From: Planctomycetota bacterium
GTDB lineage: Bacteria; Planctomycetota; Phycisphaerae; Sedimentisphaerales; Anaerohalosphaeraceae
NCBI GenBank assembly: GCA_023143375.1
Contig: JAGLHQ010000027.1
Coordinates: 1 to 45,048, forward strand
Direction: 5' to 3'
Length of the DNA: 45,048 nucleotides
In this document: positions 10,284 to 38,897 of the stretch, piece by piece
Layout: every line of letters begins with the position of its first letter
Numbering within the stretch: the stretch's first letter is position 1
Program-made: the position numbers and the translations under genes
The notes under the pieces: model-generated
Seen by the model: the letters and a program-made list of their open reading frames with translations, nothing else
The model's database searches: none
Told to the model about the DNA's origin: nothing

Positions 10284-12326
10284 CTATGGAACAGGTATCT
10301 TAACCCAGGATGTTTTAGTTGTGCCCACCGATTGCCATAGTGCACCGCCGGTTCCATCGGTCTGTCTGTAAAGGGTGCCTGCTTCACCAGGCACAACTCT
10401 ATCATATGGTGAACCTGCCCCAATCAAGGCACCTGTTGCCTTTGTGATATTCGACCAATCAAATATTGCCTCTCCCGCTATAATCGTATTAGTATTGTCC
10501 CAGGCGAGCCACCCGACAGGATTATTCAGATAATCTTTTGTAATATAAACGGCATAGCCTCCAGGGGCGTTAAAAGTGTTCGCAGAAAATTTGAGATAAG
10601 ACATGCCTCTAAGCGTACAGGCATAAAATGTTGGTATAGAATGTTCAAATGTATTTCCAATGACAGACCATTTCGAGTCTTTAGCGTCTCCGGTACAAAT
10701 CAACCCAAATCCATTTGGACTTGTAATCTGGTTACCGGAAATAACAACGTTCCCATTGTTATCATACACCCGAATGCCGTGCTCAGTTCCGATGGCACCA
10801 TCTGAAGCTCCACAAATAACATTGTCGGAAATCATCATATCTGTTACATTCCCTGCAATTACCCCATAACCACCATTACGTAAAATGTTATTTGAAATAA
10901 TAACACTGTCAGCATAGCTTGTTTTTATACCACTGACAGTAATGCACGCCTGTTTTCCAACGCCCGTCTGGCCGCCTGGAGTATCTACAATGTTATTTGA
11001 AATAATAGCTCTGGGACGATAGTTGCTTCCAGCTTGATACCCCGGAACATAGCTAATTGCGCCCTCTGTAGCTATATTCTTTGTAGTTGTTTGTCCATTA
11101 CAAATAAAATTATCAGTACACACAAAATTTTTCACACTTTTTGCCGAAATTGCACAAAAACCGCATTGTTCAAAATAATTTCCTATTATCCGAGCGCCGT
11201 TTAAAGTTGGATAACAATGTACAGGAGAAATATCACTAACTCCATAATGTTGGCCGATACCATAGAAATAACACCCGCTAACTTCTAGTGTTGTCATATT
11301 ATCATCTACGTTAATAAACATTCCTCCCGGAGAAGCACCGTCTGCATGTGCAGGAACCTTGGCGACAAAGTCACAGTTAGTGACACGAATTACGCCTCCA
11401 ACATTAGCTTGCCCGCTTACTACTATAATGGCACAAGTTGAATCTCCCTCCAAATTAACGCATTCAGCCATGTTAGTAAACTTACAGCCGTCAATGACGA
11501 AATTGCCGCCAAAATTCTGCATATAGAATGCGGATCTAACCGTGTTGACGAACTTTACGTCATAAATCTCAACGCTCTTTCCCGACTCGATCGGACCAGC
11601 GAAAAGCACGGGCCATTTGAGCTGATTGTCTTTATTGCCATCAAATGTTCCGCCGCGAATTGTCAGGCTGTTAGCTTGAAAATCGACCATTTGCACACTA
11701 TTTCCTGCCTTGTGCTTGATCGTAGCTGCAGGGTCTAAGTTCCAATATGAATCGATAGTGAGATCAAGGTTACCAATAACATACGTCCCTGGCGGAACAT
11801 GCATTTGTTCACCTGATGCAGCTGCAATTGCTGCTGAAAAGGCGGCTGTATCATCCGTGATCCCGTCGCCCTTGGCTCCATAATCCTTAACATTAACAAA
11901 AAGGCTCTCATTAGTCTTGCCAGCCGTTTCCGCATAAAGGACATATGGCACAGCTGTAATCCGCTGACGAGGTAACAGTTGCGTATAAGTGTTAGGATCT
12001 TCAAGTTCACCAGGTCGGACAGCAACTTCTAACCAGCGAGCATTGCCATCAAACGCAACACTTCCGAAATCCAACAACACTGTAAAGTAACCATCAACAA
12101 CATCAATATCCACCCGGCTGAGATCGCTTCCGATCTGACCGCCTCCAGTTCCGGCACCGAAAAGTTTAAACTGAAAGTCAAAGGAACCGTCAGCTGCGCT
12201 TCCGGCATCAGAAAGACGCCCCTGATACGTAAAGGCGGTTCCTAGAGGCTCAGCAATAATGTTGGAAGTTATGGATAGTGCGACCAGCAAGATCGCAACA
12301 TATAATGAAAACTTCAAAAACCTCAT
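10284..12326 (-). CDS. Secreted right-handed beta-helix (pectate-lyase-fold) protein, glycanase/tailspike-like
   Basis: Signal peptide. 'VKDYGAKGDGITDDTAAF' (pectate_lyase_3-type N-cap). There are many '(I/V)-x-x-N-x-(I/V)' coils ('ISNNIV', 'ISNNIL', 'ISDNVI', 'ISGNQI'). Confidence 0.7.
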   Translation of the reverse strand: MRFLKFSLYVAILLVALSITSNIIAEPLGTAFTYQGRLSDAGSAADGSFDFQFKLFGAGTGGGQIGSDLSRVDIDVVDGYFTVLLDFGSVAFDGNARWLEVAVRPGELEDPNTYTQLLPRQRITAVPYVLYAETAGKTNESLFVNVKDYGAKGDGITDDTAAFSAAIAAASGEQMHVPPGTYVIGNLDLTIDSYWNLDPAATIKHKAGNSVQMVDFQANSLTIRGGTFDGNKDNQLKWPVLFAGPIESGKSVEIYDVKFVNTVRSAFYMQNFGGNFVIDGCKFTNMAECVNLEGDSTCAIIVVSGQANVGGVIRVTNCDFVAKVPAHADGASPGGMFINVDDNMTTLEVSGCYFYGIGQHYGVSDISPVHCYPTLNGARIIGNYFEQCGFCAISAKSVKNFVCTDNFICNGQTTTKNIATEGAISYVPGYQAGSNYRPRAIISNNIVDTPGGQTGVGKQACITVSGIKTSYADSVIISNNILRNGGYGVIAGNVTDMMISDNVICGASDGAIGTEHGIRVYDNNGNVVISGNQITSPNGFGLICTGDAKDSKWSVIGNTFEHSIPTFYACTLRGMSYLKFSANTFNAPGGYAVYITKDYLNNPVGWLAWDNTNTIIAGEAIFDWSNITKATGALIGAGSPYDRVVPGEAGTLYRQTDGTGGALWQSVGTTKTSWVKIPVP

Positions 12327-12507: not shown

Positions 12508-13641
12508 TTATCCTAAATCATTATATTTAGTTCCACTCCACAGATTGCTTAATTTTGCCATACCAAGGATCAATTTGACAACCCGAACGGAAGTATTACC
12601 GATATTGTAATCATTCGGAACGCACATTCCCTTTTGAAGAATATCGTCAGACACCTGTAATTTAATTGCATTCAATATCACTTCAGGATCGGTGCCGGTG
12701 ACAACAATTGAACCTGTATCCATTGCTTCAGGACGCTCAATAGCATTTCGCACAGTTATCGCAGGAAAATCTAACATCGAAGATTCCTCGCAAATCGTCC
12801 CGCTGTCACTGATAACACAAAGTGCTTTCATCTGTAACTTTACATAATCAAAAAACCCAAATGGCTTCATGAATTTAATATTTTCATTTATATCCTTTTT
12901 GCCCAAAGCCTCCAGGCGTTTTCTTGTTCGCGGATGCGTTGAAACAACTACCGGCATATCGTATTCCGCAGCAATTTTTTCTAACGCTTCAAGCAATTGC
13001 GTAAGGCTGTCACGCCTGTCTACATTTTCTTCGCGATGAATGCTTGCAAGGAAATATTTTTTTTCTTTAAGACCAAGCTTTTCAACGGCATCGGACGCCT
13101 TAATCTTTTCAATGTGATCGTTCAAAACTTCACGCATTGGAGAGCCCGTAACATAAATTCTTCTATGTGGAAGCCCTTCGCTTATCAAATGCCTTCTGGC
13201 ATGTTCTGTATAACAAAGGTTGAAATCGCTGATGTGATCGATTATCCGTCTGTTGGTTTCCTCGGGAACATTCTCGTCGTAACTGCGGTTACCAGCCTCC
13301 ATATGGAAAATAGGGATCTTCAATCGTTTGGCAATAATAGCTGCTATGGAACTATTTGTATCTCCAAGAATTAAAACCGCGTCCGGCTGTTCTTTTCGCA
13401 ATATCTCTTCTGCTTTGATCATTATGCCGCCATAAACATGACCAAGGCTTGAAGTGTCAATGTTCATAAAATAATCGGGTTTCTTTACGCCAAGTTCTTC
13501 AAAGAAAACTTCGTTTAGTTCGTAATCATAGTTTTGACCAGTATGAACCAGAACATGCTCGACATGTTTTTCAAGCAACGCCAGCACTGATGATATTCTG
13601 ATGATCTCAGGACGTGTCCCTAATATAGTTACCACTTTCAT
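12508..13641 (-). CDS. fnlC: UDP-GlcNAc 2-epimerase family, FnlC/CapG-like (last step to UDP-L-FucNAc)
   Basis: 'ILGTRPEIIR', 'HMEAGNRS', 'SDSGTICEE'. It lies immediately downstream of the fnlA/fnlB homologues. Confidence 0.8.
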   Translation of the reverse strand: MKVVTILGTRPEIIRISSVLALLEKHVEHVLVHTGQNYDYELNEVFFEELGVKKPDYFMNIDTSSLGHVYGGIMIKAEEILRKEQPDAVLILGDTNSSIAAIIAKRLKIPIFHMEAGNRSYDENVPEETNRRIIDHISDFNLCYTEHARRHLISEGLPHRRIYVTGSPMREVLNDHIEKIKASDAVEKLGLKEKKYFLASIHREENVDRRDSLTQLLEALEKIAAEYDMPVVVSTHPRTRKRLEALGKKDINENIKFMKPFGFFDYVKLQMKALCVISDSGTICEESSMLDFPAITVRNAIERPEAMDTGSIVVTGTDPEVILNAIKLQVSDDILQKGMCVPNDYNIGNTSVRVVKLILGMAKLSNLWSGTKYNDLG

Positions 13642-16077: not shown

Positions 16078-17193
16078 TTAATCGCCTTGTTCACCTAAAA
16101 CCGTTGCTATTTTATCGGCACTGTGGCCATCACCGTATAGATCGGATACATCGCAGGCAAAGCCTTGGGCCGCCTCATTCTCGGCTTTTTCCACAGCATC
16201 CATTATCGCAGACGTATCCGAACCCACCACTCGATTACACCCCGCCGTTACAAGTTCTGTCCACTCGGTCTCGTCACGCAAAGTAACACATGGAACATTG
16301 GCCCAGTAAGCCTCCTTCTGAACGCCTCCCGAATCAGTCAATATTACTCGCGAGTTCTTTTCCAGAATCAGCATATCCAAATAAGAAACCGGATCGATTA
16401 TCTTTATCCTTGACCCGAGTTTATCTATCTCCGCTCCAAGAGTATTCTTTGTTCGCGGATGTATAGGCAGCAATATTGGCATGTCAATTTGGCTTAACGC
16501 ATTCAAAATACCATCCATTCTATCTTTATCGTCGGTATTTTCCGCCCGATGGATCGTCGCCAGATAGAATGACTTTTCTTTCAAGCCCAACTGATCCATT
16601 ATCGTGCTGGATTGTTCTGCCAGAGTCATATTAAATAAAACCGAATCATACATTACATCACCAACTTGATGTACACCTTTGGTAATTCCCTCGTTAGCGA
16701 GATTCTCAACAGCTGTATCTGTTGGGCAGAGCAATTTCTCTGAAATATGATCGGCAACAACACGGTTTATTTCTTCCGGCATCCGACGGTTAAAACTTCG
16801 TAAACCGGATTCAACATGTGCGACAGGGATATGAATTTTTACAGCTGCAAGAGCTGCTGCAAGCGTTGAATTCGTATCACCGTAGATCAACGTCCAATCG
16901 GGCTTGTTCTCCAGTAATATGCTTTCGATCTTTTCAAGCATAAGGCCGCTTTGACGACCATGAGAGCCCGAGCCAACCTCAAGATTAACAGAGGGATGTG
17001 GGATTTTCAGCTGATCGAAAAACACCTTAGACATGTTCTCATCATAATGCTGGCCGGTATGCACTATTTGTTCTTCAAAGCATACGTCGTCACTCTGTTT
17101 GTTAAACTCAGCAAACGCTCTGCTCACCGCAGCCGCTTTGATAAACTGAGGACGTGCGCCTACAACTGTTACTATTTTCAAAATCTTTTTCAT
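16078..17193 (-). CDS. wbpI: UDP-GlcNAc 2-epimerase family, WbpI-like (UDP-2,3-diacetamido-2,3-dideoxy-glucuronate 2-epimerase type)
   Basis: 'VVGARPQFIK', 'HTGQHYDENMS', 'HVESGLRSFN', 'TDSGGVQKEA'. It is adjacent to the WbpB-like gene. The track start is TTG; ATG is at 17193. Confidence 0.7.
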   Translation of the reverse strand: MKKILKIVTVVGARPQFIKAAAVSRAFAEFNKQSDDVCFEEQIVHTGQHYDENMSKVFFDQLKIPHPSVNLEVGSGSHGRQSGLMLEKIESILLENKPDWTLIYGDTNSTLAAALAAVKIHIPVAHVESGLRSFNRRMPEEINRVVADHISEKLLCPTDTAVENLANEGITKGVHQVGDVMYDSVLFNMTLAEQSSTIMDQLGLKEKSFYLATIHRAENTDDKDRMDGILNALSQIDMPILLPIHPRTKNTLGAEIDKLGSRIKIIDPVSYLDMLILEKNSRVILTDSGGVQKEAYWANVPCVTLRDETEWTELVTAGCNRVVGSDTSAIMDAVEKAENEAAQGFACDVSDLYGDGHSADKIATVLGEQGD

Positions 17194-17261
17194 CAAATGT
17201 CTCTCTTAGTCCAAAAACTCAAGAATATGCTCAGCTATGCAAACTACCATATTAAAACATT

Positions 17262-18339: not shown

Positions 18340-19551
18340 TTACATGTCTTCGCAAAAAACACTGCCAAGCATTTTATCCCAACCGGCATATGAAAAAAAC
18401 TGGCTGTCATCAGGATCGATCACATACTCATAAAGCAATTTAAGATTAGCCTTCTGCTTATCCCATGTGAAATTATCCACATATGTCTGTCGTCCTTTTT
18501 GGGCGGCTATTTCGATTTTCCTAGGATCGATAAGTAATTCAGACACAAGTTCAATCAGCGCCTCTGAGTCCCCATAAGGTACCGCCCAACCTATTCCATA
18601 ACGCTCTGCGGTAATACCAGGGAATCCACCCTTACTGGCAATGTAAGGACGTGACATCATCATCGCCTCAAACATCTTATTAGGAGTGGAGATAACAGCG
18701 ATTTCCGTGCTTGTATCATACATAATGGAAATGAGATTAGCTTTTTGCAATAACTCCATCGCCTGGTCAAGAGGAAGTCGTCCATATAATTTGATGTTAT
18801 CATAAGACTCCAAAGCTTCTTGAAGACTTTTATCACCAATCTCACCCACTATATCCACATCCACCTCGGGCTTACAGGCAGCGAGGTCTATAATCGCCTG
18901 AGCATTACGAACATAAGAGATATGACCGCTGAAATTGATGCGGATTTTTTTTGTGTCAGCAGGACAATAAGTTCCAGCGTGATCTTTGCCGGGGACATTA
19001 AGAACCTGCACACTTGGAACCCTCTTGCAAACTTTATCGCCAAAGTATTTGGCCAAAATATCCAATGTCGCCGGGCATAAAACCATCCCGTCAACACGGG
19101 CTGAACCCCATTTTTCCATAGCCTTAAGAGTACGTATAATTAAGTTGCTTGTTTCCTGATGCATCATTCCCCAAAGATCGCGAATATCTAAAACCAACGC
19201 AAACTTTCGGAACTTTTTAACCAGCAAACACGGAACGATGGATTCCAGATTCGAGGCCTGTATCAAGTCATATTTCTCGCGATAAATTTGACGGATAACC
19301 CACACCCACCAACATACCCAGGCCCATAAAAACGACAATTTATTCCCCGGCTTATACTTATGGTAATGCCAAATTATCCTCCACCCATTAGCATTTTCAT
19401 TTTCTGGTCTTTCACCTGTTTGATCCAATGACAGAATTGTTACATCATATCCCATCTCCTGCAACGTCGCAGCTGCACGCGGAACCGCCTGAGTAACATT
19501 ATATTCACCCATGCGAATTAACAGGGCTTTTCGTTTAGAAGTCAAAAACAC
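18340..19551 (-). CDS. GT-B glycosyltransferase (GT4/GT1-like)
   Basis: 403 aa. C-terminal 'PNKMFEAMMMSRPYIASKGG' is an E-x7-E-like motif. The start is non-ATG (GTG at 19551 or TTG two codons in), preceded by GGAGG. Confidence 0.65.
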   Translation of the reverse strand: MFLTSKRKALLIRMGEYNVTQAVPRAAATLQEMGYDVTILSLDQTGERPENENANGWRIIWHYHKYKPGNKLSFLWAWVCWWVWVIRQIYREKYDLIQASNLESIVPCLLVKKFRKFALVLDIRDLWGMMHQETSNLIIRTLKAMEKWGSARVDGMVLCPATLDILAKYFGDKVCKRVPSVQVLNVPGKDHAGTYCPADTKKIRINFSGHISYVRNAQAIIDLAACKPEVDVDIVGEIGDKSLQEALESYDNIKLYGRLPLDQAMELLQKANLISIMYDTSTEIAVISTPNKMFEAMMMSRPYIASKGGFPGITAERYGIGWAVPYGDSEALIELVSELLIDPRKIEIAAQKGRQTYVDNFTWDKQKANLKLLYEYVIDPDDSQFFSYAGWDKMLGSVFCEDM

Positions 19552-19613: not shown

Positions 19614-20867
19614 CTAACTTTTTTTCAGGAAAAGCCTAATACACGCGGCACTCCATAACAGACCCGTAATAAAGTTTGTAATAACAATCGCCCAGGCAGC
19701 ACCAGATGCCTTATGATCGGGTATCAATAAAAATGCAAAAATGAACGTTGCTACAAAAGTTGCAGCATTGACAATTGGTATTGTAATGATAGAACCAAAT
19801 TTACAGACAAGCGGCCGAGCAATAAAAGATAAAGAAACCGCTGGGACCATCCAAATTAAGATATCAAGCAATTCTATACACTCTTGACCAAAGTTCGGAT
19901 AAAGAGTTTTAATGATCAAAGGACCACAGAAATATAATATCGCAGGGACTACTATCATTCCGCATAACAACATCACGATACAATACATCTTACCTTTCAA
20001 TGAAAGCTGCTTTATCGAAGTATATTTTGACACTATACTCAGGATCAAACCGCCGAAGCACATCACAGGCCCGAGAAACATGAAAGCTATACTAGATGCC
20101 GCCACAAGATCCGCCACCTCTTCATATGAATGATAAAAGCTAAGAAGAAGTCGATTAATATACGGACATGAAACAATTAGTATACCAGCTATGGTTATCT
20201 GAAGCCAAGCCGACTTGAGAATAGCAGCCATCTCCTTGTTATAAGTTTTCTGGCACTGGTAGTTACAACGAAACCTAAGCAGTGCATAAACCGCCATAGT
20301 TCCGATCATATACCCCCACGCCAATCCGATCTCATCCCAAATGATCGCTCCGACAATCCCAAGGATTATCGCTGCAACTGACCGAAATGAGGTCCACATC
20401 GCCTGATGATGAAACAAACGCAGGTATCGCTTCTCAGTAAGGAGCAGCATGGACAAGTTTTCCGGATACAGAGAAATAAGCAACGGGATCAGGCAATTAA
20501 GTAATCTCCACGAAGCGAGTTTTGTCATACCCGCTATAAATATACCTATTAGACCAATGACAATAATAATCATCATTGCAGGCCGGCACAGCCTCACAGC
20601 GGTCCCGAAAAACTCTTCCCTTTTATCCTCAGGGTAATCAGATAAATGTCTTAGTAAGCCGGTACCTAAACCATTCTGCGGCTGGTATCCCAGAATCAAA
20701 GTCACACTCAATGCCGTAGCAAAAACACCAAAACCTTCCTTGCCGATGATGTACGCAGCCAAAGGAAAAAGCAGCAAACGCGGCAAAGCAAGAAAGGCTA
20801 CCTGTTCGAATAGCACCCAAAAAACATATCCTAGATCACGTTTTAACCATTTGAGTTGAGTGCGCAT
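19614..20867 (-). CDS. wzx: Wzx-type polysaccharide flippase (MOP/PST family)
   Basis: 417 aa with about 12 hydrophobic segments. Typical PST N-terminus 'LKRDLGYVFWVLFEQVAFLALPRLLLFPLAAYIIGKEGFG'. It is adjacent to the wzy candidate. Confidence 0.75.
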   Translation of the reverse strand: MRTQLKWLKRDLGYVFWVLFEQVAFLALPRLLLFPLAAYIIGKEGFGVFATALSVTLILGYQPQNGLGTGLLRHLSDYPEDKREEFFGTAVRLCRPAMMIIIVIGLIGIFIAGMTKLASWRLLNCLIPLLISLYPENLSMLLLTEKRYLRLFHHQAMWTSFRSVAAIILGIVGAIIWDEIGLAWGYMIGTMAVYALLRFRCNYQCQKTYNKEMAAILKSAWLQITIAGILIVSCPYINRLLLSFYHSYEEVADLVAASSIAFMFLGPVMCFGGLILSIVSKYTSIKQLSLKGKMYCIVMLLCGMIVVPAILYFCGPLIIKTLYPNFGQECIELLDILIWMVPAVSLSFIARPLVCKFGSIITIPIVNAATFVATFIFAFLLIPDHKASGAAWAIVITNFITGLLWSAACIRLFLKKS

Positions 20868-20901: not shown

Positions 20902-22269
20902 CTATTCCACATGCTCTTGATAATATTGTTCTTGATATGATTCTTGCGGCAACTCAGAGACAGAATACTCATCATATTCCGTTTCTTCAGAATAGATTAC
21001 CTTTGTGTTCCGAAGAATAAACCAAGAGATCAACATATACAATGCGATGGTGGAAGTATTAACGCCAAGGAAACCTGTCCTTACAAGCAAGTATGTCCAC
21101 TGGCAGATAACAGCGACAAAACAAGCTTTAAAGAGACTATCATGCGATATCATATACACATAAAGTTTGTAGCATATTAAAGCCCAGAGAATACCATAAA
21201 CAAACGGACCTAAACGACCATATAACATATGGGCCTCAGACAAACAACCGAATGTAGATGTGTGATAATAGACCGTGTTCGGTTCGAACGTCGGGCGGAA
21301 GTATTGGCTCCAGAGACCTTTTGAAGGTTTGTTTTTCCATATTGCCCTTGGGATAGGAGAAATAAAAGTATCGGCAATGACATCAGATAGAACTTTTGGC
21401 GACCATGGAAATGCCTCTGTCACAAGCGGCAGATAGTATGCCTCTTTCAGGTATCCCACAATTCCTGAAATAGCATCACCTATGCCAGTTACCTCCCCAG
21501 AAGCACCCCATAGTGCAAAACTGAGGATTACGACAGCGACAACAAGAACACCGATCAATATGGTTTTACGAAACTTCTGAAAAACACTTCGATACTGCCA
21601 CGATATTTTTTGCCATACAACAACAGAAACAATAACTGGCAAAACAAACGAGGCTTTGGTACCGCCTATTAGTGTCACACCTACGCACATCATGAAAAAT
21701 ATGATAGAAAAAAAAGACTTGCCAGATGCGAAAACCATAACAGTTGCCAATGTGATCAATACATACTTTAAGCCCAAATGAATATGAAACAGCGGCCCTA
21801 AGCCTGCCCTGACTTCTGTGTACTCTCTTGGATTGATCGCCCTGTCCATCATCGCAGCAGGTGAAAAACCAACTCCAATGCCAAGTTTAATTATCACAAC
21901 AAAACAGAATACAACAAAAAGCGTTACCCCTTTTGTCCTGATCTGCTGTGGATCGAATACTGCAACTCTTGGCTGCATTTTCGACGCTCTAAACAGTAGT
22001 GGAATTACCACGAGGCAAAATGTATAAAGAAAACATCGCAAAAGGTAAAATGACAATGCGAATTGCTTATAACTCAGCTGAGACATAAAATAGTTTGGAG
22101 CCATATTAAACTGTGCAATATAGGGCATGGCGTACAGGTAAAAAGTAGCAACACAAAATATGGTCAATGGAGAAAATATCCGATAATTCTCGCGCATGAT
22201 CATCATTTCCAAAAACGGCAGGAATATCAATATGAATACTATGTCACCATAAAAAGGATGATCAGACAA
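20902..22269 (-). CDS. wzy: Putative Wzy-type repeat-unit polymerase (polytopic membrane protein)
   Basis: 455 aa with at least 10 hydrophobic segments and one large loop. The call rests on its position between wzx and a secreted beta-helix protein, not on a motif. The start is uncertain (TTG at 22269, ATGs near 22206). Confidence 0.5.
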   Translation of the reverse strand: MSDHPFYGDIVFILIFLPFLEMMIMRENYRIFSPLTIFCVATFYLYAMPYIAQFNMAPNYFMSQLSYKQFALSFYLLRCFLYTFCLVVIPLLFRASKMQPRVAVFDPQQIRTKGVTLFVVFCFVVIIKLGIGVGFSPAAMMDRAINPREYTEVRAGLGPLFHIHLGLKYVLITLATVMVFASGKSFFSIIFFMMCVGVTLIGGTKASFVLPVIVSVVVWQKISWQYRSVFQKFRKTILIGVLVVAVVILSFALWGASGEVTGIGDAISGIVGYLKEAYYLPLVTEAFPWSPKVLSDVIADTFISPIPRAIWKNKPSKGLWSQYFRPTFEPNTVYYHTSTFGCLSEAHMLYGRLGPFVYGILWALICYKLYVYMISHDSLFKACFVAVICQWTYLLVRTGFLGVNTSTIALYMLISWFILRNTKVIYSEETEYDEYSVSELPQESYQEQYYQEHVE

Positions 22270-22281
22270 TTAGTTTCTCAC

Positions 22282-23649
22282 TTAATGAATGTCATTATTT
22301 CCCTGGGAAACGATTCTCCCGTTTGAAACAACAGGGCCAAGCAGCCGGTTATTGTAATAACGGCCAAGAGTAACGTCGACACCTTGATAAACGCCAAACA
22401 ACGGTTGCCCCTTACCCCGATACATCTGATTATTTTCAAGATCAACTGTTCCATTACCTGACAGAAAAATCCCGCATCGCTTATAAATATCGCCGTCAGT
22501 AACATGGACGGGGTCTTTGATCACATTGTCAACAATAGCAACTTTCGACTTTTTTATAACATTGCAAAAAATACCGGACCATTTTGTTGTCGTAATAACA
22601 TTATCACGGATATAACCGCTACAGGGCACCGCCAAAATGCCATACGTAGTATCGACAAGCTCATTATTCTGTATATTAACCTTTTTAGCGTAATTGACTT
22701 GTATCCCATAATCAAATCGATCTACCCGATTGTTTTCAATGTGTACACCTTCCCAGTAAACGCCTTTTGCAGGCCCCTCAGGTTTAGCGGATCCAACAGC
22801 AATGCCCGCCTGCCCGGGACTGTTTGTCTCTTCCACTGTACAGATATTATTCGTTATACGGATATCTGTTTCAGTTTCCTTGTGCCCGTTATTCATTTGC
22901 AATTTTATGCCAAGATAACGGATGTTTGTTAATTTATTATTGTAAATATTTACATGTGAAGACGCATTTAAATACATCCCATGCTGCCCTCGTATATCCA
23001 TAAAAGTATTATCATGAATATCGAGATGATCGTGTCCCATGTACAGGATCAAACCCATGGCAGTTTTGTAAAAAAGACAATTCTTTATTTCCCAATTACT
23101 ACACTTGGTACCGTAACTCCATATACCGCTATTAAACGCATCGCCGGCTTTTACTGCAACTGTCTCAGCGCTGAAAAGGCACTGGTCAAAAGTTATATTT
23201 GATACGTTGTGAGCCTTAAACCCGGCTGTTCCATGGTCATAAAACTTCACTTTTTCAAGTAGGTGCTGCCCTGTACAACGCTGCATCGAAACACCCAAAC
23301 CATCCGTACCCTTGAATGGTTTATAAGAGGAGGGATCGCCCACCAATACAATATCCCTGATTGTCACATTATTGCAATCTACTATTTTTATTATGACAGC
23401 ATTTCGTTTTAATTGAGTTATAGTTTGACCATGTCCATCAATCGTAATATTTGATTTCCCCTTAAAAACCACTGTCCCATCTATCTTCGATGAGCCGGAC
23501 AACGCAAATGTCCCACCGTTTTCTAAACGATCCGCTTGATTCTGCAACACGCGGAGTGACTGATTTGAAAATGCTGTTGATGAAAACATCACTAAAACAA
23601 CAAGCATAAAGAAAACACAACTATTTCTTTTCAATAATGAATCAAACAC
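22282..23649 (-). CDS. Secreted parallel beta-helix (PbH1) repeat protein
   Basis: Signal peptide 'CVFFMLVVLVMFSSTAFS'. Coil signatures recur: 'IHDNTF', 'IYNNKL', 'ITNNIC', 'IENNRV', 'IQNNEL', 'IRDNVI', 'VDNVI', 'LENNQM'. GTG start behind AGGGAG. Confidence 0.7.
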   Translation of the reverse strand: MFDSLLKRNSCVFFMLVVLVMFSSTAFSNQSLRVLQNQADRLENGGTFALSGSSKIDGTVVFKGKSNITIDGHGQTITQLKRNAVIIKIVDCNNVTIRDIVLVGDPSSYKPFKGTDGLGVSMQRCTGQHLLEKVKFYDHGTAGFKAHNVSNITFDQCLFSAETVAVKAGDAFNSGIWSYGTKCSNWEIKNCLFYKTAMGLILYMGHDHLDIHDNTFMDIRGQHGMYLNASSHVNIYNNKLTNIRYLGIKLQMNNGHKETETDIRITNNICTVEETNSPGQAGIAVGSAKPEGPAKGVYWEGVHIENNRVDRFDYGIQVNYAKKVNIQNNELVDTTYGILAVPCSGYIRDNVITTTKWSGIFCNVIKKSKVAIVDNVIKDPVHVTDGDIYKRCGIFLSGNGTVDLENNQMYRGKGQPLFGVYQGVDVTLGRYYNNRLLGPVVSNGRIVSQGNNDIH

Positions 23650-23702
23650 CGCGTCTCCCTTGCACTGTTCTTCATTTCAAAACAATACACTGCGTTCTGC
23701 TT

Positions 23703-23882
23703 TCATTTAATAGTTATTTGATTTGGTGCCACCGCTATGAACAAGTGATTATACATCAGACCACAAATAAATGCGGCCAAAGAAAAGGACGCTAAGCGGC
23801 GAAATACCAGATAAGTATCCTGTTCGGCAAACACCCGAAATGTATAGCCGATATTACGCTTTACCAATCTAAGTTTTTTCAT
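23703..23882 (-). pseudogene. Relic of a second wzx flippase (N-terminal ~45 codons only)
   Basis: 'LRLVKRNIGYTFRVFAEQDTYLVFRRLASFSLAAFICG' aligns by eye with Wzx residues 5-42, 'LKWLKRDLGYVFWVLFEQVAFLALPRLLLFPLAAYIIG'. That is 18 of 38 identical. The frame then diverges and stops after 59 codons. Confidence 0.6.
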
Positions 23883-23905
23883 AATTGCTATTTGGGATAT
23901 TTCCA

Positions 23906-24565
23906 CTACCCACCGCCCTTGCTAACATCAATATCGATCGCTATCGGGGCGGATACTTTATGGCCGAGGCGGGCGGCTTGAAGTCTTTGTAACTCGTGCA
24001 ATGCCTTATAAAGCGTTCGGTCGATGTGCGCCTCATAACGGCGGAACTTGCCTAGCGTGTTTGGCCCGGCGAAATCTGCGTGAACCGCCTGGCCCAGCGA
24101 CATTTTATTCGGCGGGGCATCTTTACTATCTGAGGCTGCCTTTGCCTTTGATGAACCGCCCGAAGTGACAACCTCGGTCCTGCCGCCTTCATAGTTTTTT
24201 ATGATCTTCATACGAGGTATATCATCACTGCTGCGTTTGCCATCAAGTTTTCTTGACTGAAAAGAAGACATGTTATCCAGAAGCTCGATCTCAATTTTGC
24301 CAACCCGTTTCAATCGCCAAAAAGACGCGATTATCCGATCTGCAAGAAGTTGCTCCAACTCACCTACCGGGGCAAGTTCTGAACACAACCGCCGGCGAAA
24401 CTCGGCGAACTCGATACCGCTTTCATCTTTTATAACAATATCGCCTGAGAGCAAGCCATGCTTTACGGAGTTTTTCGAACCGGTAAGCTTACCGGCAGCA
24501 GTCCGCGGGCCGGTAGAGTTTTGAGCGTTTCTTTGGTTTGCCTTGATCTGTTTTCCGGAAGTCAT
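23906..24565 (-). CDS. Conserved hypothetical protein (basic N-terminal 'ANQRNAQNSTGPRT..GK..S..N..KHGL' motif)
   Basis: 219 aa, ATG start, soluble. I recognise the N-terminal motif as a recurrent uncharacterised family but cannot assign a function. Confidence 0.5.
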   Translation of the reverse strand: MTSGKQIKANQRNAQNSTGPRTAAGKLTGSKNSVKHGLLSGDIVIKDESGIEFAEFRRRLCSELAPVGELEQLLADRIIASFWRLKRVGKIEIELLDNMSSFQSRKLDGKRSSDDIPRMKIIKNYEGGRTEVVTSGGSSKAKAASDSKDAPPNKMSLGQAVHADFAGPNTLGKFRRYEAHIDRTLYKALHELQRLQAARLGHKVSAPIAIDIDVSKGGG

Positions 24566-24661: not shown

Positions 24662-24698
24662 GGAACCACGAATGGACACGAATAGACGCCGATACTAA
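24662..24698 (+). repeat. Family A repeat, copy A1 (GGAACCACGAATG-ACAC-AAT core)
   Basis: GGAACCACGAATGGACACGAATAGACGCCGATACTAAT. It carries the mini-ORF ATG GAC ACG AAT AGA CGC CGA TAC TAA. Confidence 0.85.
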
Positions 24699-24898: not shown

Positions 24899-24924
24899 TG
24901 AAAAAATTAGCCGGCTACGCCGGC
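24899..24924 (-). terminator. Rho-independent terminator candidate downstream of wecB
   Basis: The minus strand reads GCCGGC-GTA-GCCGGC followed by TAATTTTTTC, about 57 nt after the wecB stop. Confidence 0.55.
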
Positions 24925-24980: not shown

Positions 24981-26075
24981 TCATGCCCTTGCAATTATAT
25001 CTGCAATACGCTCGGCGGCAGAACCGTCCCATAATTGCGGGATTTTTCCGCCGACATCACCGCCTGCATCCTTTATGGCCCGATAATGCTTCAAAATATC
25101 ATCGGTAGTAACATGCACTAGCCGATTGGTCCCCTCGGTTATCGTCACCGGCCGTTCCGTATTTTCCCGAAGCGTCATACATGGAACACCTAAAATAGTC
25201 GTCTCCTCCTGGATACCCCCGGAATCGGTCATAACCAAAGAAGCATTGCTCATTGGCCACAAAAAGTCCAGATACCCCACCGGATCAAGCAATATAAGCC
25301 CTTCCATCGCCTCAACACGCTTGCCAATATCTGTACCCTTGATATTGTTACGTGTTCGCGGATGAATCGGAAAAACTAGCTTAATATCTTTCTGTATCTC
25401 TTCAAAGGCTGTGATGATCTGGGCAAACGTTTCCATGTCATCGACATTACTCGGACGATGCAGCGTTATCACCACATACCCCTTTGCATCAAGTCCGAGT
25501 CTCCCCAGCACATCCGAGGCTTCAGCTTTTTTGCGATTGGCAACCAGCGTATCGATCATGACATTACCGACAAAGTGAACCCGCGCAGGATCGACGCCTT
25601 CATTATTAAGATTATCAACACCGGATTGTTCGGTAACAAAGAGCATGTCAGTTATGCTGTCAGTCAGCATACGATTGATCTCTTCAGGCATCTGCCTGTC
25701 AAAACTGCGAAGGCCTGCCTCGACATGTATGAGCTTAACCCCGAGCTTAACAGCTACAAGTCCGCAGGCGATAGTGCTGTTAACGTCGCCAACAACTAAA
25801 CAATAGTCAGCCTCTTTATCAATAACAACTTTCTCAAACCGTTTCATGATCTCTGCCGTCTGAACCGCATGGCTGCCGGAACCAACTTCAAGATTTATGT
25901 CCGGCTTAGGTATGCCGAGCTCGTCAAAGAAAAGCGTGCTCATTTTCCTGTCATAATGTTGACCGGTGTGAACAAGCGTTGATTCAAAACAGTCCTTCTC
26001 CTTTAACGCCCGCATGATAGGGGCGATCTTCATAAAATTAGGTCTGGCACCGCAAACACAAATAATCTTAATCAA
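24981..26075 (-). CDS. wecB: UDP-N-acetylglucosamine 2-epimerase (non-hydrolysing, WecB type)
   Basis: 'VCGARPNFMK', 'HTGQHYD', 'HVEAGLRSFD', 'TDSGGIQEE'. TTG start (no in-frame ATG nearby). Confidence 0.85.
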   Translation of the reverse strand: MIKIICVCGARPNFMKIAPIMRALKEKDCFESTLVHTGQHYDRKMSTLFFDELGIPKPDINLEVGSGSHAVQTAEIMKRFEKVVIDKEADYCLVVGDVNSTIACGLVAVKLGVKLIHVEAGLRSFDRQMPEEINRMLTDSITDMLFVTEQSGVDNLNNEGVDPARVHFVGNVMIDTLVANRKKAEASDVLGRLGLDAKGYVVITLHRPSNVDDMETFAQIITAFEEIQKDIKLVFPIHPRTRNNIKGTDIGKRVEAMEGLILLDPVGYLDFLWPMSNASLVMTDSGGIQEETTILGVPCMTLRENTERPVTITEGTNRLVHVTTDDILKHYRAIKDAGGDVGGKIPQLWDGSAAERIADIIARA

Positions 26076-27097: not shown

Positions 27098-27133
27098 GAA
27101 CCACGAATGCACACGAATAGACACTAATACTAA
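27098..27133 (+). repeat. Family A repeat, copy A2 (left inverted arm of the GxxExxY cassette)
   Basis: GAACCACGAATGCACACGAATAGACACTAATACTAA. 26 of 31 nt are identical to the reverse complement of A3. Confidence 0.85.
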
Positions 27134-27162: not shown

Positions 27163-27546
27163 TTAACACACTACTCTTTTCCATTCCAATTTAGCACGCT
27201 TGAAATTCAGAATAACCCCAACTTTCAAGCCCGTGATTTTCAAGTAGTTCATCATTTGGCCCATTTCGTGGTTTGTAATTTCTCGAATCACCTTTGTGTC
27301 CACAACCAATTTCCCATGAGTGATCAAATCCGGCACATATTCACCGACTTGTACGCCTTTATACATAACTTCATATCGAGATTGCTGCTCAACCGAAACA
27401 TTTTTCAGTCCAAATTCAACAACTAAAGCATTTTCGTACGGCTTCTCCAACAAACCTTGTCCAAGCTCGTTTAGGACCTCCATAGCGCATCCAACAACCT
27501 CAAAAACCTCTTCTTTAAGAATCAATTCGTGTTCATTAGTGTTCAT
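27163..27546 (-). CDS. GxxExxY protein (PD-(D/E)XK nuclease-fold family)
   Basis: 'GQGLLEKPYENAL' contains G-x-x-E-x-x-Y, followed by 'VPDLI' and 'VVDTKV' core strands. The ATG at 27546 lies inside repeat A3 (MNTNEHE...). The track start 27576 is TTG. Confidence 0.75.
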   Translation of the reverse strand: MNTNEHELILKEEVFEVVGCAMEVLNELGQGLLEKPYENALVVEFGLKNVSVEQQSRYEVMYKGVQVGEYVPDLITHGKLVVDTKVIREITNHEMGQMMNYLKITGLKVGVILNFKRAKLEWKRVVC

Positions 27547-27556
27547 TCGTGGTTCC
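27526..27556 (-). repeat. Family A repeat, copy A3 (right inverted arm; supplies the SD, ATG and MNTNEHE of the GxxExxY gene)
   Basis: The minus strand reads GGAACCACGAATGAACACTAATGAACACGAA. Confidence 0.85.
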
Positions 27557-27577
27557 TTTTTCGTCAGCGGCTGCAAA

Positions 27578-28913: not shown

Positions 28914-29918
28914 CTATTTTCCATGATCCTTCAATATCTTCTCGCGTTCTGCGATCACCATATCCGTATCCGTCATCATCTCAGCAAGCTGCTTAAACGA
29001 AACCTTAGGCTCCCATCCAAGCACCTTTTTCGCCTTAGTCGCATCTCCCAGCAAAAGGTCAACCTCAGTCGGACGGTAATAACGCGGATCGATCTCGACA
29101 TACTTTTCCCAGTCAAGATCGAGATGCCCGAACACCTCATCAAGAAACTCGCGAACAGAATAAGTATGCCCTGTAGCGACTACATAATCGTCAGGCTTGT
29201 CCTGTTGAAGCATCAACCACATCGCCTCGACATAATCGCCCGCAAACCCCCAGTCACGTTTAGCGTCAAGATTACCCAGAAAAAGCTTCTCTTGAAGACC
29301 AAGCTTAATCCGCGTCGCCGCACGCGTTATCTTACGAGTAACAAAAGTCTCACCCCGACGAGGCGACTCATGATTGAACAGTATCCCGCAACACGCAAAC
29401 AGATCGTACGCCTCACGATAATTAATCGTCTGCCAATGGCTATAAACCTTGCAACAGCCGTAAGGACTCCGCGGATAAAAACCCGTCGTCTCAGTCTGAG
29501 GCGTTTCGAGAACCTTACCGTACATCTCACTGCTCGATGCCTGATAAAACCTCGGCGGCGTCTTCATCGTCCTGATCGCCTCAAGAACCCTTAACGTCCC
29601 AAGCGCATCGGTGTCAGCCGTGTAGATCGGCATATCGAAACTAACCCGAACATGGCTCTGTGCACCGAGGTTATAAACCTCGTCCGGTTTAATATCATGG
29701 ATCACTTTCGAAAGATCGCCGCCGTCGGTCAGATCGCCATAGATCAGTTTCAGCTTAGGCTGATCGTGAGGATCCTTATACAAATGATCGATCCTCCCCG
29801 TATGAAACGACGAGCTGCGTCGAATTATCCCATAAACCTCATAACCCTTATCAAGAAGAAGCTCTGTAAGATAAGATCCGTCCTGACCCGTAATCCCTGT
29901 TATCAATGCCTTTTTCAT
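28914..29918 (-). CDS. gmd: GDP-mannose 4,6-dehydratase
   Basis: '[22 protein letters not shown]', 'QASSSEMYG', '[10 protein letters not shown]', '[10 protein letters not shown]'. The ATG at 29918 gives the canonical N-terminus; the 17 extra track codons lie in repeat C1. Confidence 0.9.
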
Positions 29919-29964
29919 ATCCGTCCTTAATATTCCATATATTATCAAAAATACATTACATCTT

Positions 29965-30027
29965 GTCATTCCAGCGAAAGTCGTAGATGCCTTAGTTTAC
30001 GCCCAAGGTGGTGCTGGAATCCATTTT
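29965..30027 (+). repeat. Family C repeat, copy C1 (long-loop hairpin upstream of gmd)
   Basis: gtcattccagcgaaagtcgtagat...gctggaatccattt. The ATTCCAGC/GCTGGAAT stem encloses a loop of about 38 nt. Confidence 0.8.
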
Positions 30028-30091
30028 TACATTTGTAACTTGTATCACCCAGCCAAATCAGCCGTAGGGTGTGCTTTAGCACACGCGGAAA

Positions 30092-31039
30092 CTAAACAAC
30101 ACCAAATATTTTCTCTTTATACCAATCAACTTCCGCTTTCACGCCGTCGACAAGCTTTGTCTTAGGATCATACCCCAACAACCGTCTTGCCTTATCGATA
30201 TTAGCAAACGTTCTGAGCTGATCCCCTTGCCTCGGCGACGTCAGCTTATACTTGCCCTTCTTACCCAATGCATCCTCGACAGCCTTGATCCCGTCAGCGG
30301 TACTCCGCTCCTGGTCCCAGCCGATATTTATTATCTCTCCGACGCAACTTTCCATGTTCTCAAGCACCGCGACAAACCCGTCGACAATATCGTCAACATA
30401 AGTAAAACTCCGAAGATGCTTTTTGCTCCCCTCGTAAAGCGGAAACTCCGTATCTTCAAGAATACTCTTGATAAGCTTCGGATAAAGTTTCTCGGGCCGT
30501 TCCCTTGGGCCGTAAACAGAAAACAATCGCAGCGAACAAACCGGCATGTCGTTTTCGGCCCCAAAGGTAAGCGCCATTCGCTCTGCCGCTAATTTCGTAA
30601 CCCCATAAAAAGATGCGGGCTCCGGAACAGTCTCTTCGCTCTCGGTGGCATACTTACCGTAAACAGAAGACGTAGACACATTGACAAACATCTTCAAACA
30701 CGACGACCCCTTCAAGGCATCCAGCAATCTATGCGTTGCCGTTATATTATTTCGTTTATAATCCTCAAAACTCGTCGCATCGCTTATCCCCGGCTGAGCA
30801 GCACAATGATAAACAACCTCGACACCTTTAACAGATTCGCAAAGATCGGACTCCGCAAGATCAAGCTCAAATATCCGAGCACCGCTTTTCTTTACATCAG
30901 CCGCATTAAGATCCTTAAGGCTCCGCGCATAATAATCGCTAAAACAATCCAGACCGATCACCTCGTGCCCCGTCTTAGCCAATCGCTCAGACAAATGAGA
31001 ACCGATAAACCCCGCTGCACCCGTAACAAGTATCTTCAT
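30092..31039 (-). CDS. Extended-SDR NAD-dependent epimerase/dehydratase (possibly UDP-glucuronate 4-epimerase-like)
   Basis: 'VTGAAGFIGSHL', 'STSSVYG', 'YGVTK', 'LRLFSVYGPRERP'. The substrate is not determinable from sequence alone. Confidence 0.65.
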   Translation of the reverse strand: MKILVTGAAGFIGSHLSERLAKTGHEVIGLDCFSDYYARSLKDLNAADVKKSGARIFELDLAESDLCESVKGVEVVYHCAAQPGISDATSFEDYKRNNITATHRLLDALKGSSCLKMFVNVSTSSVYGKYATESEETVPEPASFYGVTKLAAERMALTFGAENDMPVCSLRLFSVYGPRERPEKLYPKLIKSILEDTEFPLYEGSKKHLRSFTYVDDIVDGFVAVLENMESCVGEIINIGWDQERSTADGIKAVEDALGKKGKYKLTSPRQGDQLRTFANIDKARRLLGYDPKTKLVDGVKAEVDWYKEKIFGVV

Positions 31040-31308
31040 AAATTAACCTATAACCTTCACGATAAAATCTTTTAAATCAGTGAAATCAGTGGATAGACCT
31101 GTAACAAGCCCCAGCCGAAGGCTGGCTCCATATTTCTTTCCTCTGCGTCCTCTGTGCTCTCTTTTTCCGTGTTGAGCGTAGCGAAATCCAGCGCAGCTGG
31201 AGTGAAACTCGCCGAAAGAGAGCCTCTGGCGGATGGCAAAAACAACCACTGTTACATTTCTACTGTTCGCTGTCTGCGTAAGCAGCAACTAATTTAAACG
31301 CAAAACCT

Positions 31309-31339
31309 TTTTATTTAATTAGTGTCTATTAGTGTTCAT
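31309..31339 (-). repeat. Family A repeat, copy A4 (orphan)
   Basis: The minus strand reads GGAACCACGAATGAACACTAATAGACACTAA, giving the mini-ORF M-N-T-N-R-H-stop. It lies 18 nt after the ugd stop. Confidence 0.85.
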
Positions 31340-31356
31340 TCGTGGTTCCTTTTCCA

Positions 31357-32658
31357 CTACCCACGACCAATGCTATGATACTCAATTCCCTGCTTGCGAA
31401 CATACGCCGGCTCGTAAAGATTTCGACCGTCAAAAATAACCGCCTTATTTAATTTCTCTGCGATCACATCGAAGTCCGGAGTCCGGAACTCCTGCCACTC
31501 TGTAAATATCACCAACGCATCGGCACCGTCCAGCACGTCATAGCTCTTTTCGACTGTTGTTATAGCACCGTCAAGCTCTTCGCTCGCTTCCTTCATCGCC
31601 TCAGGATCATAAGCAACCACTTCCATGCCAGCCGCCAAAAATTTCCGTATACAACGTATCGAAGGAGCCTCACGTACATCGTCGGTCCTGGCCTTGAACG
31701 CAAGCCCCCAAACCGCAAGCTTTTTACCCGATGCATCATCGCCAAAATAATCCAGCACCCTCTGTGCGAATTTATCCTGCTGCCTGTAATTAACATGCTG
31801 AACAGCCTGAGCTATCGTCATCGGATACCCAACAGCATCGCCCATAAACTCCAGAGCCTTTACATCCTTAGGAAAACAGCTTCCGCCGTATCCGACGCCG
31901 GGAAACAAAAACGAACTGCCGATACGCGAATCGCTACCGATACCCGCTCGTACATTCTCAATATCTGCGCCGTACTTCTCGCACAATCCGCTAAGCTCAT
32001 TCATAAACGATATCCGAGTCGCAAGCATAGTATTCGCTGCATACTTGCTCATCTCAGCACTGGCAGTGTCCATAAAAAGTATCCGGCTGCTCTTACGCAT
32101 AAACGGAGCGTACAACTGACGCATGATCTCTCTGACCTCTTCTTTTTCGTTACCGATGATGATCCTGTCAGGCTTCATAAAATCATCGACCGCAGAACCC
32201 TCTTTCAAAAACTCAGGGTTGCTAACATAATCGAACTTTTGTTTCGTCTTAGAACTCATCACGTCGGCCACCTTTTTGCCCGTGCCCACAGGAACAGTGC
32301 TTTTGGTAACCACTATCCTGTAACCGTCCATGCACTCGGCGATCTTACCGGCAACATCCAGCACCGCCGATATATCCGCCGACCCGTCCGCAGAGCTTGG
32401 TGTTCCAACGCCGATAAAGATAACCTTAGAGTTATTAACTCCCTCGCTAATATCCGTCGTAAAGACTAGCCGTCCGTCGGACTCGTTCTTTTTAACGATC
32501 TCGGTAAGCCCCGGCTCATAGATCGGGATCACGCCTTTTTTAAGTGCGTCGATCTTCTTCTTATCGTTGTCAATACAGATAACATGATTACCGCCCTCTG
32601 CCAGACAACCCGCCGCCACAAGACCTACATATCCTATTCCGACTACTGCTATCTTCAT
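31357..32658 (-). CDS. ugd: UDP-glucose 6-dehydrogenase
   Basis: 'KIAVVGIGYVGLV', catalytic Cys 'GGSCFPKDV', 433 aa. Its ATG overlaps the upstream stop (ATGA). Confidence 0.85.
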   Translation of the reverse strand: MKIAVVGIGYVGLVAAGCLAEGGNHVICIDNDKKKIDALKKGVIPIYEPGLTEIVKKNESDGRLVFTTDISEGVNNSKVIFIGVGTPSSADGSADISAVLDVAGKIAECMDGYRIVVTKSTVPVGTGKKVADVMSSKTKQKFDYVSNPEFLKEGSAVDDFMKPDRIIIGNEKEEVREIMRQLYAPFMRKSSRILFMDTASAEMSKYAANTMLATRISFMNELSGLCEKYGADIENVRAGIGSDSRIGSSFLFPGVGYGGSCFPKDVKALEFMGDAVGYPMTIAQAVQHVNYRQQDKFAQRVLDYFGDDASGKKLAVWGLAFKARTDDVREAPSIRCIRKFLAAGMEVVAYDPEAMKEASEELDGAITTVEKSYDVLDGADALVIFTEWQEFRTPDFDVIAEKLNKAVIFDGRNLYEPAYVRKQGIEYHSIGRG

Positions 32659-36957: not shown

Positions 36958-36980
36958 TCTGTATCTCCCTTTTATCTTTT

Positions 36981-37052
36981 AAATCTCTGTGTTCTCTATG
37001 CCCTCTTTTTCCTCTGTGGCAAAAATACCTTTTTATCCAGCCGAAGGCTGGA
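36981..37052 (+). repeat. Family B repeat, copy B2 (3' flank of pepA)
   Basis: aaatctctgtgttctctatgccctctttttcctctgtggcaaaaatacctttttatccagccgaaggctgg. Roughly 90% identical by eye to B3. Confidence 0.85.
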
Positions 37053-37096
37053 ATTACCGTCTCATTCGTGCCTTTTTGTGTTAATTCGTGGCTGAA

Positions 37097-38623: not shown

Positions 38624-38695
38624 CTCTATTCCCTTAAAATATTTTAAATCGTCTCCGCGTTAGCGGATTCCATAATTTTACTTTCTATCTCTTTT

Positions 38696-38766
38696 AAAAC
38701 TCTGTGCTCTCTGTGCTCTCTTTTTCCTCTGTGGCAAAAATAACCTTTTATTCAGCCGAAGGCTGA
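38696..38766 (+). repeat. Family B repeat, copy B3 (5' flank of pepA)
   Basis: aaaactctgtgctctctgtgctctctttttcctctgtggcaaaaataaccttttattcagccgaaggctga. Shorter relatives occur at 31141-31170 and 35881-35910. Confidence 0.85.
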
Positions 38767-38897
38767 AACAATTCGTGCTTTCTCCGTCCTTAAAAACTTA
38801 TGGAGTCTTGTTCGCGGCATTGCTCAGACAGCCAAAGTAATAGATTGATTATCTGCCTATTAGGCAGTTCGTGACCAAATCTGTTTTTATTCTTTAA

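Follow-up and report, generated by a model that had tools for sequence, protein, structure and literature searches.

In the 45,048-nucleotide (nt) stretch of DNA analyzed here (the window; contig JAGLHQ010000027.1, positions 1–45,048, of assembly GCA_023143375.1 from an uncultured member of the Planctomycetota, family Anaerohalosphaeraceae), a short open reading frame (ORF) in the middle of a surface-polysaccharide locus, at 23703–23906 on the minus strand, is very probably the nonfunctional 5′ remnant of a gene for a Wzx flippase, left behind by an illegitimate junction. This frame, hereafter the stub, has 67 codons when read from a GTG at 23906, which overlaps the TAG stop codon of the upstream gene for a 219-amino acid (aa) protein (p219) as TAGTG, and 59 codons when read from an ATG at 23882. 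From the ATG, its product consists of MKKLRLVKRNIGYTFRVFAEQDTYLVFRRLASFSLAAFICG, 41 residues that resemble Wzx, followed by LMYNHLFIAVAPNQITIK, a tail of 18 codons. The relic proper (23760–23882, minus strand) comprises the first 41 codons, which are homologous to a subfamily of Wzx over its cytoplasmic start and the greater part of its first transmembrane helix. With one hydrophobic segment of about twelve, the predicted product is not expected to act as a flippase.

Similarity of the Stub to Wzx

The homology of the stub to the Wzx family is significant and limited to its N-terminal 41 residues. In BLASTP with compositional adjustment, residues 3–41 of the stub align with residues 4–42 of an intact 417-aa Wzx-like protein encoded in the same window (wzx417; 19614–20867, minus strand) at 18 of 39 identical positions (46%; 38.9 bits; E = 1e-9). 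This bears out a sequence-only reading of the same DNA, which had noticed that the 59-codon frame resembles the N-terminus of the intact Wzx and then diverges. The Smith-Waterman score of the stub was reached by none of 2,000 shuffles that preserved composition (z of 13.1 against the resident Wzx and of 20.7 against the best relative), and other multipass membrane proteins of the window (those of wzy and M50B), used as controls in the shuffle test, scored against the stub at background. The match therefore stays significant when the composition of transmembrane helices is allowed for, and that composition does not explain it. Against a profile built from 29 members of the family, the stub scores 25.5 bits (E = 2.9e-10) over profile positions 3–43, and it aligns with the very N-terminus of about 29 of the 31 Wzx homologues, with identity as high as 60% over 40 aa (P0004). 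At the level of DNA, positions 23809–23879 share 74.6% identity with the 5′ end of wzx in L007, a related locus. All alignments of the stub, whether made by BLASTP, tblastn, or hidden Markov model (HMM), terminate at its residue 41, which corresponds to window base 23760.

The stub has lost features that characterize members of the family. At three positions that are invariant or nearly so in the 29 members (W17, P29, and P35 in the numbering of the 417-aa protein), it has R, R, and S, each a single-base change away: the invariant W is replaced by R (CGG from TGG), the nearly invariant P by R, and the invariant P by S. Such losses are expected from relaxed constraint after truncation. Members are multipass proteins of about 400–480 aa with about 12 membrane helices, as compared with 59 aa and one hydrophobic segment in the stub. 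Relative to Wzx proteins of family PF01943 in the MOP superfamily, the 41 residues of the relic align to the N-terminus of the subfamily, of which a clade A member (see below) in locus L101 scores 36.6 bits against a gathering score of 28.2, but the relic keeps only about 10% of the protein.

The remainder of the gene is absent. Searches of the window with family members found no other fragment of wzx at any place or in any reading frame, and the invariant motif GK.xFG, which comes next in every member, is not encoded in any of the three frames downstream of 23760. With only about 110 bp from the break to the next gene and no continuation, a frameshifted wzx pseudogene was rejected. The stub has the marks of a gene remnant: it is truncated with an abrupt loss of homology, it sits where related loci have the intact gene, an intact gene predicted to serve the same function (that of the 417-aa Wzx-like protein) is present, and it is not conserved as a small gene. 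The stub, called as a 67-aa protein, was found on seven contigs, from the metagenome-assembled genome (MAG) GCA_030671605.1 and several independent assemblies of the same sample series, with identical gene order. Because the junction recurs in contigs of separate assemblies, it is not an assembly chimera. Protein searches recovered only such copies from its own population, and the proposal that the frame is the 5′ relic of a second wzx, and neither a chance resemblance nor a conserved small gene, holds.

The Junction and the Sequence That Follows It

The frame leaves its wzx context at 23759/23760. The tail (23703–23759, minus strand), 18 codons and a TGA stop, begins at this junction; no family member aligns beyond residue 41, and the tail has no similarity to the 3′ ends of wzx, the acyltransferase genes, or the spacers of relatives. 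One population variant has a nonsynonymous change, M43I, in the tail. A 53-bp spacer follows (23650–23702, minus strand), with a Shine-Dalgarno-like AGGGAG (23655–23660) located 5 nt before the GTG start of a gene for a secreted beta-helix protein. Since the beta-helix gene has an AGGGAG of its own, it does not depend on the stub.

Remains of the lost 3′ part of wzx or of an acyltransferase gene were found neither in the 110–150 bp past the junction nor elsewhere in the window, and a source for the segment between the junction and the beta-helix gene, sought in all fetched loci and in the window, yielded matches at chance level only. The junction is free of traces of mobile elements (no remains of an insertion sequence (IS) or H-repeat), a scan for promoters and terminators around it had no matches close to the stub on the coding strand, and no Rfam family reached its gathering score anywhere in the window. 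Homologous recombination within wzx would have produced a full-length chimera and not a stub, and the relic is joined abruptly to sequence that matches nothing; both argue that the junction is illegitimate.

The Edge of the Variable Region

The stub lies at the border between a conserved flank and a variable region. The closest relatives of the flank, loci L104 and L105 from samples JGI 3300082323 and 3300083231, were found through a cluster look-up of the 219-aa protein. Their alignment to the window has 85% DNA identity up to about 23923 and fades in the last six or so codons of p219, past which the stop codon alone is shared and nothing beyond, placing the boundary at 23906–23925. On the flank side, the wecB of L104 and L105 is 84–86% identical in protein sequence to the wecB2 of the window, the intergenic region has the same interspersed repeats, and only the last 56 codons of p219 remain (95% protein and 85% DNA identity), as a 3′ relic at L104:1371–1580 and L105:1182–1391. 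On the other side, an intact and unrelated PF01943 Wzx gene (39.4 bits, with a cutoff of 28.2) starts 48 bp after the p219 stop. The limit of homology and the presence of this gene show that the variable region starts 24–40 bp upstream of the ATG of the stub and is led by a flippase gene in both genomes.

Composition and repeats change at the same place. GC content is 0.505 in p219 and 0.47–0.49 in the flank genes, as compared with 0.41 in the stub and, in the two genes that come next, 0.40. GC content at third codon positions (GC3) is 0.48–0.57 in the flank genes (0.52 in p219) and 0.38–0.43 across the stub (0.39) and the three genes that follow. All copies in the window of an interspersed intergenic repeat, GAACCACGAATG.ACAC.AATAGAC, are at or above position 24663 and none are below (24663–24698, 27098–27133, 27524–27560 and 31317–31353, both as reverse complements, and a weak copy at 37063–37099); the repeat is also present at L104:910–1133. 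The step in composition and the confinement of the repeat agree with the boundary drawn from L104 and L105, and the stub is thus confirmed to lie, as had been described from the sequence, where an AT-rich and repeat-free cassette meets a GC-richer and repeat-laden flank. Aligning the loci of relatives to map the breakpoint located the edge of the variable region, at 23906–23925; flank and foreign cassette do not meet at position 23759/23760, inside the stub. A 25-nt repeat (23900–23924 and 31351–31375) was dropped from consideration, being at about chance level in 45 kb by a rough estimate.

The Position of wzx in Related Loci

Five related Planctomycetota share the gene order wecB-wzx-hexapeptide acyltransferase-beta-helix (L007/L011/L103, L017/L018, L101, L106, and the contig of P0008; in the last, Pfam assignments cover wzx and the acyltransferase gene only, flanking genes are placed by position and size, and the gene upstream is partial and uncharacterized). 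In L007/L011/L103, a housekeeping flank of prfB-pepA-folE-PTPS also matches the window. Locus L101 continues with wzy-GT4-fnlABC-GT4(-WD40), like the window, and L102 combines the same backbone with a flippase that is unrelated. Among relatives, cassettes are as a rule led by a flippase gene. The stub occupies the position of their wzx, and the beta-helix gene comes next. The latter is 58–64% identical to the genes of L007/L011, L017, L101, and L106 that lie two genes after a clade A wzx and that are 55–64% identical among themselves; in the same pairwise comparison, wecB2 is 72–75% identical to its relatives, which are 70–80% identical among themselves. Relative to the canonical layout, the window is missing the 3′ part of wzx and the hexapeptide acyltransferase gene, of which no homologue was found anywhere in the window. 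It has in addition p219 before the stub, wzx417 between wzy and GT4, and genes for a GFO-family oxidoreductase and wecB1 before fnlA.

A close intact parent was not among the sequences searched. Neither a word-indexed search of 5.8 billion proteins nor an exhaustive phmmer search of 1.84 billion representatives found a closer full-length parent of the stub, and one weak, multi-stretch phmmer match was judged spurious. A scan of metagenomes with wecB2 gave 80 loci, none with more than 79% identity and none with this Wzx family beside wecB. The full-length ancestor of the relic, which was to be sought in related genomes, was not recovered.

A second stub is present in one of the related loci. 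Directly after wzy, at L011:16389–16574 (equivalent to L007:14876–15061), is a 5′ relic of GT4 of about 44–65 codons, followed by wecB-like and glycosyltransferase genes and then an intact GT4. This relic is 80% identical to the intact GT4 over 44 aa, and the pattern of stub, inserted genes, and intact copy is the same as in the window.

The Resident Flippase and the Clade of the Relic

The intact wzx417 lies after wzy, which is a noncanonical position, and the window contains no other candidate flippase. It has 31 homologues with 39–61% identity, 13 of which carry PF01943 (Polysacc_synt) and several of which are named by their sources as O-antigen/teichoic acid export proteins. Its own scans against Pfam and NCBIfam gave no match at E ≤ 0.01, related proteins of L101 and L104 pass the PF01943 cutoff, and a profile search of PDB sequences found no match for wzx417. 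The relatives of wzx417 come from Planctomycetota MAGs labeled as Pirellulales, Sedimentisphaerales, Anaerohalosphaeraceae, and Phycisphaerales.

In a neighbor-joining tree, the wzx genes of relatives with the canonical context form clade A (100% bootstrap). The resident wzx417 falls outside this clade and groups weakly (45% support) with P0002, P0003, and P0005 (clade B), whose cassettes have other polymerases and are without a beta-helix gene. Among the closer family members, wzx417 is least similar to the stub (17/36), and P0007 and P0004 of clade A are most similar (23/36). Scores of the stub against N-terminal HMMs are 51.7 bits for clade A versus 47.4–49.6 bits for clade B. Residues and HMM scores thus weakly suggest that the stub derives from clade A rather than clade B; its neighborhood is a stronger argument for a clade A origin than are the scores.

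How the Stub May Have Arisen

Gene order and alignments, taken at the level of sequence, show that a wzx originally led the variable part of the locus and that only its codons 1–41 survive, which abut, with no homology at the join, some 110 bp of unassignable sequence that leads to the beta-helix gene. As to how this came about, we lean toward a two-step route, in which gain of a second flippase was followed by a deletion in situ. The locus would first have gained a second and divergent flippase gene from another clade, wzx417, between wzy and GT4, and its presence would have made the original clade A wzx dispensable. A single illegitimate deletion of about 1.8–2 kb would then have taken wzx from codon 42 on, together with the acyltransferase gene, and the stub would have drifted afterwards. 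This route is favored because it uses only gene sets seen in relatives and has a precedent in Salmonella (see below). Wzx proteins have been described as favoring their cognate repeat unit (PMC6436433), which would make a joint loss of the acyltransferase and change of flippase coherent, and the two events probably altered the repeat unit. To judge from its genes, remodeling of the locus probably changed the polysaccharide. The sequence-only reading went further and held that an overwrite would be direct evidence for serotype switching, which is an overreach for an organism that is uncultured and without serology; what the data show is remodeling of a locus.

Several observations weigh against the two-step route. 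The collections searched hold no close relative with an intact copy, and the parent and deleted segment are inferred. Both the polymerase (wzy455) and wzx417 are somewhat more diverged from their relatives than the beta-helix protein, which could fit an imported block as well. The 110-bp segment that separates the junction from the beta-helix gene matches nothing and is not demonstrably an old spacer between acyltransferase and beta-helix genes. The assignment of the stub to clade A corresponds to a difference of 2–4 bits plus three diagnostic residues. The frame remains open, with a start that overlaps the upstream stop codon, and expression is possible. In addition, the relatives available for comparison, at only 50–65% identity, are too distant to decide between an in situ deletion and an overwrite.

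An overwrite in one step is a less probable account that nonetheless deserves weight. An imported block, which began some 110 bp ahead of the beta-helix gene and took in wzy, wzx417, GT4, and more, would have replaced all that followed codon 41, with an illegitimate left end inside wzx and a crossover at the right end in a conserved gene downstream, for example, GT4 or fnlA (homology-facilitated illegitimate recombination). The proximity of the stub, within 24–40 bp, to the border defined by L104 and L105 is consistent with such an event, and the different Wzx-led cassette in those loci implies that cassette exchange at this site has occurred in this group of lineages. The fall in GC3 at the stub from 0.52 to about 0.39, the parallel signature of the GT4 stub in L011, and the divergence of wzy455 and wzx417, which exceeds that of wecB2 as well as that of the beta-helix protein, also fit. 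However, the donor would already have been a rearranged mosaic, with a beta-helix gene and wzy of the clade A type, a clade B wzx, and no acyltransferase gene, and no such locus was found. The genes just past the junction are those that canonically accompany the type of gene the relic comes from, and the step in composition is at the start of the stub and not at the breakpoint inside it. The earlier proposal, that an older flippase-led cassette was overwritten by recombination with a breakpoint inside wzx, is thus upheld in part: a real relic of wzx lies at the border of flank and variable region, and relatives are flippase led, but the partner genes past the breakpoint speak against an overwrite, the illegitimate junction speaks against a homologous crossover inside wzx, and an internal deletion after gain of a second flippase accounts for the data no less well.

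The remaining explanations fare worse. That the 59- or 67-codon frame is now, whatever its origin, a functional small gene, for example, for a single-pass membrane peptide, or a translational coupler between p219 and the downstream genes, is very improbable. The frame is open, its GTG overlaps the upstream stop, it encodes one hydrophobic segment (a Kyte-Doolittle 19-residue maximum of 1.77 at residues 33–51), and it has no single nucleotide polymorphisms (SNPs) among six population contigs (L001–L006). But the absence of SNPs extends over all of 23458–24088, is not specific to the ORF, and is uninformative about selection, and one variant has the nonsynonymous change in the tail. Neither of the two protein collections searched has a homologous small protein beyond copies from the same study, invariant or nearly invariant residues of the parent family have been lost, and no Shine-Dalgarno-like motif precedes the ATG. 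We also consider very improbable a broader proposal, that the stub is kept open, and is made as a 59–67-aa single-pass membrane peptide or couples translation into the beta-helix gene, wzy, and wzx, and that 5′ stubs beside inserted genes (wzx here and GT4 in L011) mark a regular mechanism of remodeling in Planctomycetota. Derivation of the stub from wzx417, as a partial duplicate made by a local rearrangement, would account for the shared locus and strand and the 46% identity over 39 residues, but we hold it to be extremely improbable, given that eight other closer members match the stub at 19–23/36, that neutral decay of a copy would not converge on the residues of those members, and that the stub sits where relatives have an intact wzx. 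A recent partial duplication is excluded by the resident gene having the lowest similarity. The shortness of the match (about 40 residues) and the origin of the DNA from a MAG could raise the suspicion of chance similarity from transmembrane-helix composition or of an assembly artifact, whose probability is negligible in view of the shuffle and control scores, a match that is position specific to the N-terminus of about 29 homologues and extends to the DNA of L007 wzx, and the recurrence of the junction in separate assemblies.

Genes and Other Features of the Locus

Nearly all genes of the window are on the minus strand, and the stub is in the middle of the locus, between precursor genes and processing and transferase genes. 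In the order of transcription, the locus starts with genes for a uxs-like epimerase, ugd, another epimerase, gmd, and an aminotransferase, followed by those for a GxxExxY protein, a TviC-like epimerase, and wecB2. After p219 and the stub come the genes for the secreted beta-helix protein, the Wzy-like polymerase, and the 417-aa Wzx, then GT4, the GFO-family oxidoreductase, wecB1, and fnlA/B/C-like genes, and last a second beta-helix protein, a 127-aa ORF, a GT4, a WD40 protein, and an initiating sugar transferase.

Upstream of the stub, wecB2 (24981–26075, minus strand; TIGR00236, 323 bits) encodes a UDP-GlcNAc 2-epimerase, ends the conserved series of sugar-precursor genes ahead of the flippase position, and is 72–77% identical to the wecB that precedes wzx in relatives. 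The locus has three paralogues of UDP-GlcNAc 2-epimerase genes (12508–13641, 16078–17196, and 24981–26075), and wecB1 and wecB2 are 41% identical. Just past wecB2, in the 415-bp intergenic region, is a terminator-like hairpin, GCCGGCGTAGCCGGC, followed by a run of T (24910–24924, minus strand), downstream of which the variable region may have a fresh transcription start. The gene p219 (23906–24565, minus strand), whose product starts with MTSGKQIKANQRNAQNSTGPRTAAGK..KHGLL, forms an insertion when set against the canonical junction of wecB with wzx: no counterpart separates these two genes in L007, L017, L101, and L106, and relatives have a spacer of 20–60 bp there. Searches of Pfam, NCBIfam, PHROGs, PADLOC, and PDB sequences gave nothing for p219. 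In population variant L004, 24 SNPs, with six amino acid changes, are clustered within 200 bp of the 5′ half of p219 (24323–24519), and none are in the adjoining 630 bp; the cluster looks like a short tract of recombination or gene conversion.

Downstream of the stub, the first intact gene (22282–23649, minus strand) encodes a secreted right-handed beta-helix protein of 455 aa (PF13229), and translation from its GTG yields a signal peptide whose n-region has K/R. It is one of two genes for secreted beta-helix proteins in the locus, the other being at 10284–12326. The Wzy-like repeat-unit polymerase wzy455 (20902–22269, minus strand; 455 aa) scores 38.3 bits with TIGR04370, just under the cutoff of 40, and is 50–54% identical to its counterpart in L011, L101, and L102. 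The GT4 glycosyltransferase gene (18340–19551, minus strand), identified by Pfam GT4 domains, is directly after wzy in relatives and is 61–67% identical to the GT4 genes of L009, L011, L016, L101, and L102.

Farther upstream in the window, two opposed copies of the interspersed repeat flank a small GxxExxY/PDDEXK_3 gene (27163–27576), and these bracketing repeats suggest that the gene may be a mobile insertion. A second family of repeats, CTCTGTG.TCTCTGTGCTCTCTTTTTCC, has 79-nt copies, 90% identical, at 36975–37053 and 38690–38768 on either side of a leucyl aminopeptidase gene, and is also present at 31141–31168. Upstream of a DUF2130 gene, three tandem copies of a 38-nt unit, spaced 44–52 nt, are located at the end of the window (44901–45034). 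A release-factor ORF (PCRF/RF-1 domain; 38898–39764, minus strand) has 288 aa and begins at profile position 58, as compared with 349 aa for the gene of a relative, which may reflect the programmed frameshift that is usual for prfB or a start called at the wrong codon. The deposited MAG contig L001 differs from window positions 29485–32481 at nine positions, seven of which are in 32284–32481 inside ugd.

Comparison with Known Systems and Implications

Remnants of this kind have been described in O-antigen clusters. The clusters of groups B1 and D1 of Salmonella enterica retain remnants of wzy, for which the authors deduced that acquisition of a new wzy preceded functional loss and serial deletion of the earlier gene (Reeves et al. 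2013; PMC3715488). As in the window, a fragment of a processing gene is at the original position and an intact, different gene elsewhere does its job. In contrast to Salmonella, the remnant here is of wzx and not wzy, the replacement is in the same cluster, two genes downstream, and not at a separate locus, and no IS or H-repeat is at the junction; furthermore, the organism is an uncultured planctomycete without a described polysaccharide structure or serology, and the intact ancestor was not among the sequences searched. Salmonella group D2 originated through recombination of D1 and E clusters, with known parents and a remnant of an H-repeat at the junction (PMC3715488). The window is likewise a mosaic of two cassette types, combining a clade A-type beta-helix gene and wzy with a clade B-type wzx, but its parents are deduced from relatives at 50–65% identity and the junction has no trace of a mobile element.

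The stub is a gene remnant of a well-known kind, an ordinary footprint of cluster remodeling in a poorly studied phylum. It opens no new biological question and is unsurprising, and its use is in annotation and in the history of the locus: the left edge of the variable region is fixed, and the frame should be annotated as a pseudogene fragment rather than a hypothetical protein. The comparisons also define a conserved layout for the cassette in these Planctomycetota, wecB-wzx-acyltransferase-beta-helix-wzy-GT4-fnlABC. Within that layout, the original flippase and acyltransferase would have been lost and a flippase of another clade would have taken over, a pattern like that in the O-antigen clusters of Salmonella. 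The stub thus provides a footprint, dated in sequence, of the rebuilding of a Wzx/Wzy-dependent locus in a phylum in which such loci are essentially unstudied.

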